A stretch of 52,506 nt of DNA, taken from a virus. Below the pieces are notes generated by a model, which was not told the DNA's origin, did no database searches, and worked only from the letters and a program-made list of their open reading frames with translations. The DNA lies in the UHGV virus genome UHGV-0041832, one strand, 5' to 3'. How positions within the stretch are numbered: position 1 is the first letter of the stretch; the number at the start of each line of letters is the position of its first letter. Below, in pieces: positions 6,951 to 18,172 of the stretch. The translations under genes and the position numbers were made by a program.

Positions 6951-7874
6951 TTATTGACAGCAAACAATCTCTTTATATGTTTCTTCTACCATGTCGAATA
7001 CTTCCGGCCTGTAATAAAAAAATTCAGTGCTACCATCAAACTTAACAGGGAAGTTTATTTTATAGTCACTGAAAGCATCGTGCATTTTGCTTTCTATTTC
7101 CTGCATAATCTCAGTAGGCCCATTCCATGTTTTAACTACCTGTAAATCAGTCAGCCTTACACCTGCCTTACGAGCACTTTTAAATACTCTGTTCCTCCTT
7201 TCGTTCTCTTTTACGCTTACACCAATTTTCATTTGTGTAGGCACTTCAAGATCATCAACCATGATGTAAAGTTTTCCGTTGTAGTGTGATAAAAACCCGT
7301 ATTTAGCGCATTTCGGGCAACCGCGCCCGCTCTTAATGTCTCTAGGTTTAGCCGACCACTCATGATCACAAACCTTGCAGCGGCATAATACTTTTGTACT
7401 GTTATTAACTATTTCAACCAGCACTTCAATATCAGGATTAACCTTAGCAATAGCCGATATTTGTTCTTCATGCGATATTTTTTTGCCTTGCGCTCGTTTT
7501 AGCACCGCACATTTCTGGCAACCGCTCCCGATCTTAAGGCTTTTAGGTGTAGAATACCACTCATGATCACAAACCTTGCAGCGGCATAATACTTTTATTT
7601 TGTCGCCGGTAATTTCCCCAAGCACTTCAATATCAGGATTAACCTTAGCAATAGCCGATATTTGTTCTTCATGCGATAACTTCATATTCCCAGCGCATTT
7701 CTGGCAACCACGTCCATATTTAATATTGCTAGGTGTAGCCGACCATTCATGGTTACAAACTTTGCAGCGACATAATACTTTTGTACTGTTATTAACAATT
7801 TCCCCTAACACTTCAACATCAGGATTAACTTTCGCGATAGCTGCAACTTGTTCTTCATGTGTTAACTTGCGCAT
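6951..7874 (-). CDS. Three tandem CxxC..CxxC zinc-ribbon repeats fused to a T5orf172 (GIY-YIG-like) C-terminal domain
   Basis: 307 aa; three ~64-aa repeats (HEEQxxAIAKVNPDxEVLGEI...KVLCRCKVCxHEW...GxGCxKC); C-terminal GKLYIMVDD...KIGVS...FDGSTEFF resembles T5orf172. Confidence 0.6.
   Translation of the reverse strand: MRKLTHEEQVAAIAKVNPDVEVLGEIVNNSTKVLCRCKVCNHEWSATPSNIKYGRGCQKCAGNMKLSHEEQISAIAKVNPDIEVLGEITGDKIKVLCRCKVCDHEWYSTPKSLKIGSGCQKCAVLKRAQGKKISHEEQISAIAKVNPDIEVLVEIVNNSTKVLCRCKVCDHEWSAKPRDIKSGRGCPKCAKYGFLSHYNGKLYIMVDDLEVPTQMKIGVSVKENERRNRVFKSARKAGVRLTDLQVVKTWNGPTEIMQEIESKMHDAFSDYKINFPVKFDGSTEFFYYRPEVFDMVEETYKEIVCCQ
7310..7874. repeat. Three direct ~195-bp tandem repeats inside the zinc-ribbon gene
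   Basis: Near-identical DNA segments (e.g. agcacttcaatatcaggattaaccttagcaatagccgatatttgttcttcatgcgata at 7425-7482 and 7624-7681); also evident as duplicated alt-frame ORFs 7375..7566 and 7576..7890. Confidence 0.85.
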
Positions 7875-15597: not shown

Positions 15598-15819
15598 ATG
15601 GTTAAGAGCTTTTTAAACTGGTTAAAGGCGTGGCTTTTGGTTACGCTTTTTGTTTTTTTGGTGTTCAGTGGCGCTATCGTCATATTTACGCTGGGTATGA
15701 TTTTTGTTACATGGTCAGTACCTGAATTTAACGACATTGAAAGCATTCTTTTTACTGTACGCGCTTTATTGGCTGGTAGCGCATTCATCGGTTTTTGCTT
15801 TACTGTTTCGCGTGATTAG
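15598..15819 (+). CDS. Small two-helix membrane protein
   Basis: 73 aa with two hydrophobic segments. Confidence 0.45.
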   Translation: MVKSFLNWLKAWLLVTLFVFLVFSGAIVIFTLGMIFVTWSVPEFNDIESILFTVRALLAGSAFIGFCFTVSRD

Positions 15820-15820
15820 G

Positions 15821-16069
15821 ATGAATGGTGATCCTATGGCTTTATTCAATATGTCAGAGCCGCAATTTAACGCCGTAAAGACTGCCGCCCGCGCCGCGCT
15901 TTCGGCCTGCAAAGCGGAGGTAGAGAAGAACGGCTACAGCGATAAAGCCACGCGGCTGATATTAGAGAAGCATTATCGCAAGGTTGCCCCACTAATCAGC
16001 ATTGAGCGTTTTGTGTGGTTGGTTGGGTATCTAAATAATCGGTGGGGTACTGATCAGGATTATTTCTGA
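15821..16069 (+). CDS. Hypothetical protein
   Basis: Internal start MNGDPMALFN of ORF 15704..16069, directly after the upstream stop. Confidence 0.4.
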   Translation: MNGDPMALFNMSEPQFNAVKTAARAALSACKAEVEKNGYSDKATRLILEKHYRKVAPLISIERFVWLVGYLNNRWGTDQDYF

Positions 16070-16620
16070 TGGGGGTCATGATGAAAAATGATTTTGGAGG
16101 TAGTCACACTCCAAAGGAAATTAAAGATCTATGGCAGACGCCTAAACCAGTTTTCAGAGGAATGGACCGCGAATTTGAATTTGTCGCGGACGTGGCGGCA
16201 AACAAAGCAAACGCGCTAGTTCCGCGATATATAACCGAAGAAATGGACACGTTGCATTATCCGTGGGGAGCGGTGGCAATGCCTGGTGAGTATGTTTGGC
16301 TTAATCCACCATATTCTAATCCTGGGCCATTCGTTGATAAGGCGGCGCTTGAACATCAACGAAATCATATTGGCTGTGTAATGCTATTGCCCGCTGACAT
16401 TTCTGTTAGCTGGTTTATGAACGGCGTGGAGACGGCAAACGAATGCCGATTAATCACGCGCGGGCGTCTGGCGTTTATCAATGCCGCTACTGGTAAGCCA
16501 GCAAGCGGAAACAATAAGGGTAGCTTGTTCTTGATCTGGCATCCACGGTGCAGACATGAATGTATTTTCACGCAGATAACACGTAAAGAGCTATATGCAA
16601 GAGGTGCAGAAAATGAATAA
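16069..16620 (+). CDS. dam: Phage N6-adenine DNA methyltransferase (Dam-like)
   Basis: 183 aa; DLWQTP start and NPPY catalytic motif (WLNPPYSN). Confidence 0.75.
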   Translation: MGVMMKNDFGGSHTPKEIKDLWQTPKPVFRGMDREFEFVADVAANKANALVPRYITEEMDTLHYPWGAVAMPGEYVWLNPPYSNPGPFVDKAALEHQRNHIGCVMLLPADISVSWFMNGVETANECRLITRGRLAFINAATGKPASGNNKGSLFLIWHPRCRHECIFTQITRKELYARGAENE

Positions 16621-16933
16621 AGCGGCTGAATTGCTGAGACTTGCGGCTGAAACTATCGAGGCAAGAGGGGAGCAAAACGGATACGATCGAAAAGAAGAAA
16701 AATCAGCGCCAAAAATAGCCACTATTTTCAACGCTAAGATGAATGCGAATTTAACCCCACTTGATGTATGGGATCTAATGATTTGCCTCAAGGAAGCGCG
16801 TTTAGGGGCTATTCTCGCTAATGGAACTGATCCGCTCGACACTCTTATAGACCTTATTGCTTATAACGCGCTTAAGGCCGAACAGATATTAGCGTATCGG
16901 GAGGAAGAGCTAAATGAAGATGGTGGCAATTGA
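16595..16933 (+). CDS. Hypothetical protein
   Basis: 112 aa ORF. Confidence 0.45.
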   Translation: MQEVQKMNKAAELLRLAAETIEARGEQNGYDRKEEKSAPKIATIFNAKMNANLTPLDVWDLMICLKEARLGAILANGTDPLDTLIDLIAYNALKAEQILAYREEELNEDGGN

Positions 16934-17417
16934 CAGGTTATTAGCCTGCGTTTATGTCGCCGTTTTCGTTATCATCAATCTTATTGTTAACCACTGTGGC
17001 CCGTGGGTAATTCCGATCACCACGGTAGCCGCCGTGTGTGTCAATATGATGATTCGTGATTTTCTGTTATATGACGGCGGCCTTAAATGGTCGGCTACAA
17101 CATGCGCCGCCGCTGGCGCAATCACGGTGCTGATAAATTACGACGCCGGAATGGTGGCGATCGCGTCATTCGTTGCGGTTGTTTCCGGTGCACTTATTTC
17201 TGGCGGCGTTTACCGGGTTTTGCCTGGTGGCTTTGATTCTAAACGTTGGCCTGCAAATATAGCGTCCGCCATTGGTGATGCGTTAATTTTTCCTACGCTA
17301 TCGTTTATGGCGTTTATGCCGGAAATATCAGCTATGCAATTCATCTCAAAAATGGCAGCGGTAACGGTGATCACCATCATTATGCGCCGCTATTTCACGT
17401 TTGAGGGTAGAAAATGA
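16914..17417 (+). CDS. Integral membrane protein (4-5 predicted helices)
   Basis: 167 aa, multiple hydrophobic segments; possible transporter-like fold but family not established. Confidence 0.5.
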   Translation: MKMVAIDRLLACVYVAVFVIINLIVNHCGPWVIPITTVAAVCVNMMIRDFLLYDGGLKWSATTCAAAGAITVLINYDAGMVAIASFVAVVSGALISGGVYRVLPGGFDSKRWPANIASAIGDALIFPTLSFMAFMPEISAMQFISKMAAVTVITIIMRRYFTFEGRK

Positions 17418-18172
17418 GCAGGGCTAAACATTGGTTAAATAATTGGCTTAGAAGTTGGGTGGTGTGGTCGCTGTACGACGGCAGCGGGTACGCCGTTAAA
17501 GATTGGGCGGAAGCTGGATATAAGTGCTATTGCTTCAACTATGACGGCGCAAATCACGGAGATTATGAAGGCGTTAAAATCATTCATCCAAATATTGAAT
17601 ACGTTAACGTCTGGATTGATAGCCATTTCCTGGTAATGTTCTCCCCTGAATTGTCTGTTTATCCAGAGCCTGACATTATCCTGGGCTTTCCTCCATGCGA
17701 CGATCTCGCTGTGTCAGGCGCTCGCTGGTTCGTTGATAAATACAGGAAAGATCCTTGTTTTCAGAATAGGGCGGCAAGAAACGCAATGTTGGTTGAATCT
17801 CTGGCTAACATGTATAACGTGCCGTGGATGGTGGAGAATCCTGTTGGTGTGCTGTCAACGCTATGGCGTAAACCGGATTTTATCTTCAATCCTTGCGCTT
17901 ACGGTGGCTACCTGCCGGAAGATGACAAGCATCCTGCTTTCCCTGATGTTTACCCACCGCGCGACGCGTACACGAAGAAAACTTGCATATGGTGCGGCAA
18001 CGGATTCAGGCAGCCGCTTTTTAGACCTGTAGATCTTAACTCTGGTGATAACCCTGGGTGGGCGAAAACCGGAGGCAGGACGAAACGAACAAAGATGATC
18101 CGCTCACTAACACCGCGTGGCTTTGCCCGTGCTGTATTCCTGGCTAACCATGACCGCGTTTTATCGGACTGA
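17414..18172 (+). CDS. DNA cytosine-C5 methyltransferase-like protein (divergent motifs)
   Basis: 252 aa; LYDGSGYAV (motif I-like), GFPPCDDLAVSG (PC motif with D replacing canonical Q), MVENPVGVL (ENV motif). Confidence 0.5.
   Translation: MSRAKHWLNNWLRSWVVWSLYDGSGYAVKDWAEAGYKCYCFNYDGANHGDYEGVKIIHPNIEYVNVWIDSHFLVMFSPELSVYPEPDIILGFPPCDDLAVSGARWFVDKYRKDPCFQNRAARNAMLVESLANMYNVPWMVENPVGVLSTLWRKPDFIFNPCAYGGYLPEDDKHPAFPDVYPPRDAYTKKTCIWCGNGFRQPLFRPVDLNSGDNPGWAKTGGRTKRTKMIRSLTPRGFARAVFLANHDRVLSD

Follow-up and report, generated by a model that had tools for sequence, protein, structure and literature searches.

The virus genome UHGV-0041832, a stretch of 52,506 nucleotides (nt) that we refer to as the window, carries a block of four overlapping genes at positions 16069-18172, in which genes for two DNA methyltransferases flank a gene for a DUF6378 protein and a gene for an integral membrane protein. 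The reading that we consider probable is that these are mosaic accessory genes of the early operon and not one pathway: two orphan methylases, a putative 7-deazaguanine importer without a DpdA partner, and a DUF6378 protein of unassigned function. All parts belong to known families, and the sole non-trivial point is a conserved YhhQ-like transporter that lacks its usual DpdA. The genes, numbered 1 to 4 below, all lie on the + strand of the window:

16069..16620, + strand: gene 1, phage Dam-family N6-adenine DNA methyltransferase by sequence, 183 amino acids (aa); PF05869, TIGR01712, phrog_111, NPPY motif
16613..16933 (longest open reading frame from 16595), + strand: gene 2, DUF6378 protein, 106 aa; PF19905, identical to P0279
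16914..17417, + strand: gene 3, predicted mini YhhQ/VUT-family (COG1738-like) integral membrane protein, 167 aa, phrog_4899; profile homology and hydropathy
17414..18172, + strand: gene 4, predicted compact Dcm-like C5-cytosine DNA methyltransferase, 252 aa, phrog_757; fold and motifs I, IV and VI

The original prediction, made from the DNA letters alone, had described a DNA-modification block at this position, and its open reading frames (ORFs) as well as every motif that it quoted were found in the translations; the second ORF measures 112 aa from its longest start. Neighboring genes overlap by 8, 20 and 4 nt in order. The four ORFs are real genes and not chance ORFs, since gene 1 scores well above curated family cut-offs, genes 2-4 all have a PHROG family match, with E values between 3.7e-17 (second ORF) and 1.1e-86, and the ratio of non-synonymous to synonymous substitution rates (dN/dS) of all four genes against phages mEp021 and MagusPhagus is low (0.02-0.20). 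A promoter and terminator scan inside the block gave nothing exceeding shuffle expectation. In a PADLOC scan of defense systems the only models matched were orphan methyltransferase models, by the Dam protein.

The membrane protein and the DpdA gene

Sequence profiles identify gene 3 as a homolog of the YhhQ/VUT-family transporters in miniature form. Its protein has a mean Kyte-Doolittle hydropathy of +0.99 with five to six hydrophobic segments, and six transmembrane helices are predicted in the mEp021 ortholog by both TMHMM and Phobius. A word-based search returned 12 close relatives and an exhaustive profile search 257; PF02592 (Vut_1) exceeded its gathering score in eight of the ten profile relatives that were scanned. 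These eight and the homologs from phages PEAT2 and AB3P2 scored 37-53 bits at a cut-off of 27.2, with 38-39 bits for the latter two. An alignment of 20 sequences, the window protein among them, was matched by hhalign to gp41 of phage CAjan, a “putative preQ0 transporter” of 159 aa (96% probability, E 4e-9, 139 columns), and to E. coli YhhQ (E 3.4e-4, 141 columns). Searching phage genomes with tblastn gave seven mEp-type records at 97-99% identity; a further 14 are distant, with 28-36% identity across 84% or more of the length, and several of these carry the annotation “VUT family protein”. The polar residues that are invariant in the family (N22, R48, D49, D122 and K146) are kept in the gene 3 protein. 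The gene that mEp021-like phages and the inspected E. coli prophages list as hypothetical or as “putative membrane protein” can now be given the name of a mini-YhhQ/VUT-family transporter.

E. coli YhhQ is described as a transporter of preQ0, preQ1 and queuine (Zallot et al. 2017), and yhhQ-type genes have been described before from phage gene clusters for 7-deazaguanine DNA modification, for example in CAjan. A membrane protein within a modification block, which had been flagged as unusual, thus has precedents; what is indeed unusual is the absence of the DpdA partner. In all nine of the distant isolate phages that were inspected (PEAT2, AB3P2, Opt-719, LHE71, RCIP0319, Phc, Lg3, Flyfo Tbat1_6 and ECO111 5-P) the transporter gene is directly adjoined by a gene for a phrog_887 “queuine tRNA-ribosyltransferase” of 243-275 aa. 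The phrog_887 family aligns with CAjan DpdA in hhalign (94% probability, E 1e-7), and CAjan DpdA is experimentally required for modification; a profile of these DpdA-like proteins had no matches among PDB sequences. The gene beside VUT in Opt-719 had been considered as another Dcm-like protein; this was rejected, as it is DpdA-like.

In the window and in one relative (L004), the position of DpdA is occupied by the Dcm-like methylase. Searching with three phrog_887 DpdA-like proteins by tblastn, we found no DpdA in the window (best E 0.065) and none in MagusPhagus positions 1-51,521. There was no TGT-like Pfam match among the early-region ORFs examined, ORFs of at least 230 aa in the late, structural half not having been individually scanned. 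Neither MagusPhagus nor the mEp021 region has an annotated gene for preQ0 synthesis, and the scanned window proteins, which covered part of the small ORFs, showed none either. Among six metagenomic relatives, DpdA is adjacent in three (L028, L030 and L031) and is not found within 4 kb in the P0133 and P0138 lineages, while one short contig is undecided. That this VUT clade always stands beside DpdA was accordingly rejected, the exceptions being the P0133 and P0138 lineages and L029.

Several other arrangements were observed. P0133, the closest transporter relative outside the mEp-type phages (46% identity), lies on a 38.8-kb metagenomic phage contig (L023, 4001-6258) and lacks a DpdA neighbor within 4 kb; two small genes of unknown function and then a PF01555 N6/N4 DNA methylase come after it, making this a second DpdA-less mini-YhhQ near a DNA methylase. 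The Tunavirus LHE71 (L013, 1175-1854 (-) and 3986-5289 (+)) has the pair of VUT and DpdA-like genes, with a Dcm-like gene about 2 kb off on the other strand. This Dcm-like gene appears as two separate high-scoring segment pairs and may be split or frameshifted. P0208 and P0272 are distant VUT-like relatives of about 340 aa with a C-terminal DUF5020 domain fused.

One explanation for a transporter gene without DpdA is that it is the leftover of a VUT-DpdA module from which DpdA was displaced by recombination, or that its product has a non-transport role such as superinfection exclusion or membrane perturbation. DpdA is the usual neighbor elsewhere, and the Dcm-like, VUT, DpdA and Dam genes lie within a few kb in early regions of Drexlerviridae, which could act as donors for mosaic exchange and are a plausible source of the recombination that paired VUT with a methylase. 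The yhhQ of CAjan itself is dispensable for DNA modification. In addition, a natural deletion variant of 16914-18172 exists on a 55.8-kb phage contig (P0127, 171 aa), in which the first ~100 residues of the VUT-like protein are fused in frame with the last ~70 of the Dcm-like methylase. Yet the transporter gene is under the strongest constraint of the four, with 40 synonymous and 4 non-synonymous differences from mEp021 (dN/dS 0.024) and a dN/dS of 0.061 against MagusPhagus, compared with 0.12-0.20 for the Dcm-like gene. Its ORF is intact in seven of seven mEp-type phage records, the block is carried by 35 of 5,426 complete E. coli genomes, and the invariant polar residues are retained. Other DpdA-less lineages exist, so loss of DpdA does not bring decay. 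On this balance we consider a leftover or a non-transport role unlikely.

As a conserved transporter, the protein would most likely import a 7-deazaguanine base (preQ0, preQ1 or a queuine-type base). With no DpdA found that could insert the base into its DNA, the phage would pass it on to the host Tgt/queuosine-tRNA pathway or use it otherwise; our confidence in import into the host pathway, which is suggested by family membership, is modest. It is conceivable, if doubtful, that conservation of a DpdA-less mini-YhhQ means that the phage or lysogen manipulates the 7-deazaguanine/queuosine pool, or that the transporter carries an unrecognized substrate. If so, queuosine-modified tRNA might be raised to tune translation, or the preQ0 supply of competitor phages that encode DpdA might be altered, and phage VUT proteins would have a new auxiliary function outside DNA modification. 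This conservation offers a testable case for roles of phage YhhQ proteins other than feeding 7-deazaguanine into DNA.

The Dcm-like protein and its PCD motif

The predicted structure of the gene 4 protein (AlphaFold, mean predicted local distance difference test score (pLDDT) 86.5) has a class I Rossmann-like methyltransferase fold with C5-methyltransferase topology. The top Foldseek matches of this model are exclusively C5-cytosine methyltransferases, with DNMT3B/3A at E 2e-6, which bears out the proposal of a C5-methyltransferase-like protein. The sequence matches phrog_757 “DNA methyltransferase” (E 1e-86), and homologs in BASEL phages are labeled “Dcm-like C5 cytosine methyltransferase”. 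The family is very common, with upwards of 7,555 protein-database clusters and members in 1,520 of 50,697 phage records. In single-sequence and profile searches of PDB sequences the sole matches were DNMT3B and M.HaeIII, both marginal (E about 0.08); PF00145 was matched by 10 of 23 relatives at E <= 1 (best 1.3e-6), and hhalign against E. coli Dcm aligned motif IV alone (E 0.049).

The catalytic motifs are conserved. Motif I reads LYDGSG (aa 20-25; YDGSG at nt 17474-17488, aa 21-25), includes the invariant G23 and S24, and aligns with motif I of DNMT3B in the PDB profile match; FDGSG is the form found in 97 of 117 family members. Motif IV, PPC(D), lies within GFPPCDDLAVSG with the catalytic Cys95 (nt 17690-17701), and motif VI, VENPVG, contains Glu141 (ENP at nt 17834-17842). 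The pair Lys188-Lys189 is encoded at nt 17975-17980 and a motif IX-like segment, RSLTPRGFARAV, at nt 18101-18136. Invariant in an alignment of 23 members are G23-S24, P93-P94-C95, E141-N142-P143, W151-R152-K153-P154, K188 and R230-R235, and a C-terminal block IRSLTPR...A.A...N is kept throughout. Judged by sequence, R152/K153 (in WRKPD), K188 and N245 are invariant in these members and are candidates for the motif VIII arginine and motif X (GN) positions, and the target-recognition domain is very small. The original prediction described motif VI as a retained ENV; the pair Glu141-Asn142 is indeed invariant, but the form is ENP.

The same prediction took PCD in place of PCQ as a sign of non-canonical cytosine chemistry, and this is not supported by the comparison with relatives. 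Among the 120 top homologs the PPC motif was found in 117 and ENP in 118. In these 117 closest homologs the residue after the catalytic cysteine is threonine 111 times, aspartate six times and never glutamine. Outside the mEp021-like clade, PCD occurs in only a few other members, and threonine and aspartate switch among close relatives. Because the whole family is without PCQ, and because DNMT3B, the nearest solved fold and a genuine 5-methylcytosine (5mC) enzyme, reads PCN-DL at this position, PCQ is not required and its absence is no signal.

A characterized relative also makes ordinary 5mC. The trigger of retron Ec86 is a 711-bp gene of the KarlJaspers-like Drexlerviridae phage K42, described as a “Dcm-like C5 cytosine methyltransferase” and modeled on DNMT3A with active-site residues C82, E128, K175 and K176 (bioRxiv 10.1101/2023.08.16.553469). 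By LC-MS (liquid chromatography coupled to mass spectrometry), K42 Dcm puts 5mC into the multicopy single-stranded DNA of retron Ec86 at the Dcm site CCTGG, and C82A/E128A/K175A/K176A K42 Dcm is inactive, with loss of retron activation (same source). The Dcm-like protein bas04_0049 of the BASEL phage FritzSarasin (Drexlerviridae), when read from Met22, has 236 aa with C82, E128 and K175-K176 exactly, and it is through this exact agreement of length and residue numbering that we link the published K42 Dcm to the FritzSarasin protein. The latter and the window protein are 60% identical over 233 aa and share the variable segment DNPGWAKTGG, and C95, E141 and K188-K189 of the window protein have spacing identical to that of C82, E128 and K175-K176. 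By this analogy, the enzyme would use S-adenosylmethionine (SAM), with Cys95 as the nucleophile and Glu141, to form ordinary 5mC, most likely at CCWGG. It could be the type of activity that is sensed by retron Ec86, and the presence of the gene predicts that such prophages or phages could be sensed by retron Ec86-type defenses.

Homologs of gene 4 stand alone in very different phages. In a T1-like contig the gene has no Dam, DUF6378 or membrane-protein neighbor; there is likewise no Dam, DUF6378 or VUT neighbor in a 134-kb phage contig, where it lies beside helicase and polymerase genes, or in T7-like Salmonella phages, where it lies between ligase and gene 1.7-like genes. These findings suggest an independent orphan methylase module. 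They bear on a more ambitious interpretation, in which the block is one hypermodification pathway: the transporter would import a precursor, and the PCD enzyme (perhaps together with the DUF6378 protein) would attach it or another non-methyl group to cytosine, the methyltransferase-like gene functionally replacing DpdA beside the transporter. We regard this as highly unlikely. Phage records number 1,520 for the Dcm-like family and 21 for the transporter clade, about a seventy-fold difference that argues for an enzyme independent of the transporter. The K42 relative makes plain 5mC, PCD and PCT vary among near relatives, and base exchange has no known chemistry in a C5-methyltransferase fold. 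In addition, DNA of the mEpimmI phages, the group to which the window belongs, is cut by NdeI, which argues against wholesale hypermodification.

A different cofactor is scarcely probable either. A precedent exists in CmoX of Synechococcus phage S-B43 (PDB 8yf3), a DNA cytosine C5-carboxymethyltransferase, and a CmoX-type enzyme in the window would draw carboxy-SAM from host CmoA to form 5-carboxymethylcytosine, or have some other cofactor preference. The window protein differs from CmoX in having FPPC and not SPPC, and by sequence it has an invariant asparagine in the C-terminal motif, with no carboxylate-binding arginine (R350) identified; no CmoA or CmoY partner genes accompany it, and such an activity conflicts with the LC-MS result for the K42 relative. 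Returning to the preferred reading of gene 4 as an orphan 5mC methylase, the PCD motif is removed as a lead: it falls within the normal variation of a phage Dcm-like family that is very common and of which one member has been shown to make plain 5mC.

Dam, DUF6378 and the phage setting

Gene 1 is unambiguous by sequence as an ordinary member of the phage Dam family. Its protein matches PF05869 (E 1.9e-51, 174.5 bits, cut-off 28.1) and the phage_N6A_met equivalog TIGR01712 (140.5 bits, cut-off 97.05), as well as phrog_111 and the PADLOC orphan methyltransferase model (E 9e-24), and is 94.5% identical to its ortholog in mEp021, gp30. The NPPY catalytic motif is at aa 79-82 (nt 16303-16314), so that the Dam-like N6-adenine methyltransferase with NPPY was correctly recognized at the outset. 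The enzyme would methylate the N6 position of adenine, with GATC as the target expected from the family.

Gene 2 matches PF19905 (E 3.5e-9, 37.3 bits, cut-off 27.1), and P0279, a 100% identical protein of 106 aa, has the NCBI name “DUF6378 domain-containing protein”. The start is most likely 16613, because P0279 has the same NCBI start and because this ATG overlaps the Dam stop in ATGAATAA. The family alignment shows a conserved helical core of ~95 aa and a variable, poorly conserved C-terminal tail of 55-65 aa in most relatives; these are mostly 161-170 aa long, mEp021 included (compare L001 5115-5612), and the tail is absent from the 106-aa window copy. Identical 106-aa copies are on record for 202 contigs, among which the longest is a chromosome of 5.4 Mb. 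The AlphaFold2 model is poor (pLDDT 60, predicted template modeling score 0.35), with no meaningful Foldseek match (best E 0.46); the protein had no matches among PDB sequences, a homolog search returned close E. coli prophage copies only, and the literature gives no function for DUF6378. The PHROG label “phosphofructokinase” (phrog_474) was disregarded, as it lacks credibility for a helical protein of 106 aa. DUF6378 sequences may be MazG-like (all-alpha nucleoside triphosphate pyrophosphohydrolases), a tentative lead. The gene 2 product is a small helical protein without an assigned function.

The window represents a temperate coliphage of the mEp021-like (mEpimmI) group. The DNA of the block is 87-90% identical to that of mEp010, mEp515, mEp044, mEp021, mEp554, mEp013 and MagusPhagus, and 100% identical to a chromosomal prophage in E. 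coli MS 21-1. The mEp021 record has these four genes too, in unchanged order, labeled putative N6-adenine methyltransferase (gp30), hypothetical (gp31), putative membrane protein (gp32) and putative DNA cytosine methyltransferase (gp33). They sit between the predicted terminators t3 and t4 in the N-antiterminated early operon, upstream of ninF, ninG, rusA and Q. The paper on mEpimmI phages names the cytosine methylase in passing only and does not discuss the membrane protein.

Other features of the window were noted. The gene directly upstream of Dam (15836-16069, +) shares 96% identity with ipe of mEp021 (“inducer of pleiotropic effects”, 77 aa), and the mechanical ORF list runs its start back to a TTG at 15704. 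Among the replication genes, a 307-aa protein (6951-7874, -) has three DUF4379 treble-clef zinc fingers with CapR-homology repeats, and its C-terminus is a T5orf172/MUG113 (GIY-YIG-like) domain. In the whole window CCWGG occurs at 116 sites compared with 58 +/- 6.5 in dinucleotide shuffles, and GATC at 245 compared with 168 +/- 11, so both are enriched and not avoided. The pattern is compatible with sites that usually are methylated and not left exposed. E. coli in general is enriched in CCWGG, and no conclusion is drawn from this enrichment.

Taken as orphan enzymes, the two methylases would pre-methylate the phage DNA and thereby blunt methylation-sensitive restriction, with a benefit expected in hosts without Dam or Dcm or with cognate restriction enzymes. 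Several points weigh against reading the block as unconnected accessory genes with these functions. Since Dam, Dcm, YhhQ and de novo preQ synthesis are present in E. coli itself, a benefit of all three genes in a typical host is uncertain. Between the transporter gene and the Dcm-like gene there is an overlap of 4 nt (ATGA), and the pair is adjacent in L004 too, where the proteins are 54% and 64% identical; this adjacency could be functional coupling and not mosaic chance. Pfam and NCBIfam scans gave no match for the gene 3 protein, Vut_1 (PF02592) included, and none at E <= 0.1 for the Dcm-like protein, PF00145 included, and the assignments of genes 3 and 4 rest on fold, profile and transitive homology. 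The substrate of the mini-YhhQ clade is assigned by homology, and the dispensability of yhhQ in CAjan counts here as well. The CCWGG and GATC specificities are extrapolated, and the change from threonine to aspartate beside the catalytic cysteine may still affect activity.

Comparison with known systems

The Dam protein is like the phage family PF05869/TIGR01712 in its full-length match above curated cut-offs and its NPPY motif, with no notable difference. The gene 3 protein shares full-length profile homology and a multi-pass membrane topology with YhhQ/VUT proteins (PF02592, COG1738), and has the short format of ~160 aa that is common to the versions in CAjan, PEAT2, AB3P2 and Drexlerviridae. 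Its setting differs from that of CAjan gp41: the protein has no direct Pfam match, no DpdA or preQ0-synthesis genes were found, and its neighbor is a cytosine methylase.

The Dcm-like protein shares with DNMT3A/3B and with M.HhaI and M.HaeIII (PF00145) the predicted class I fold, motif I of the form xDGSG, PPC, ENx and a motif IX-like helix, and DNMT3 is likewise without PCQ (PCN-DL). It is only 12-19% identical to DNMT3A/3B and the bacterial C5-methyltransferases, is at 252 aa a much shorter protein, and has a target-recognition region of minimal size. Unlike PF00145 enzymes, it lacks a PF00145 match, has ENP and not ENV, and shows no canonical QxRxR/GN in its sequence. The closest known system is the Dcm-like methylase of Drexlerviridae (FritzSarasin, K42/KarlJaspers; PHROG 757), which is alike in size class, residue spacing and DNMT3-like fold; the window protein differs by a 13-aa N-terminal extension and by aspartate in place of threonine after the catalytic cysteine. 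The Drexlerviridae gene stands alone in a lytic phage, whereas the window gene belongs to a temperate mEp021-like phage and is translationally coupled to the VUT gene.

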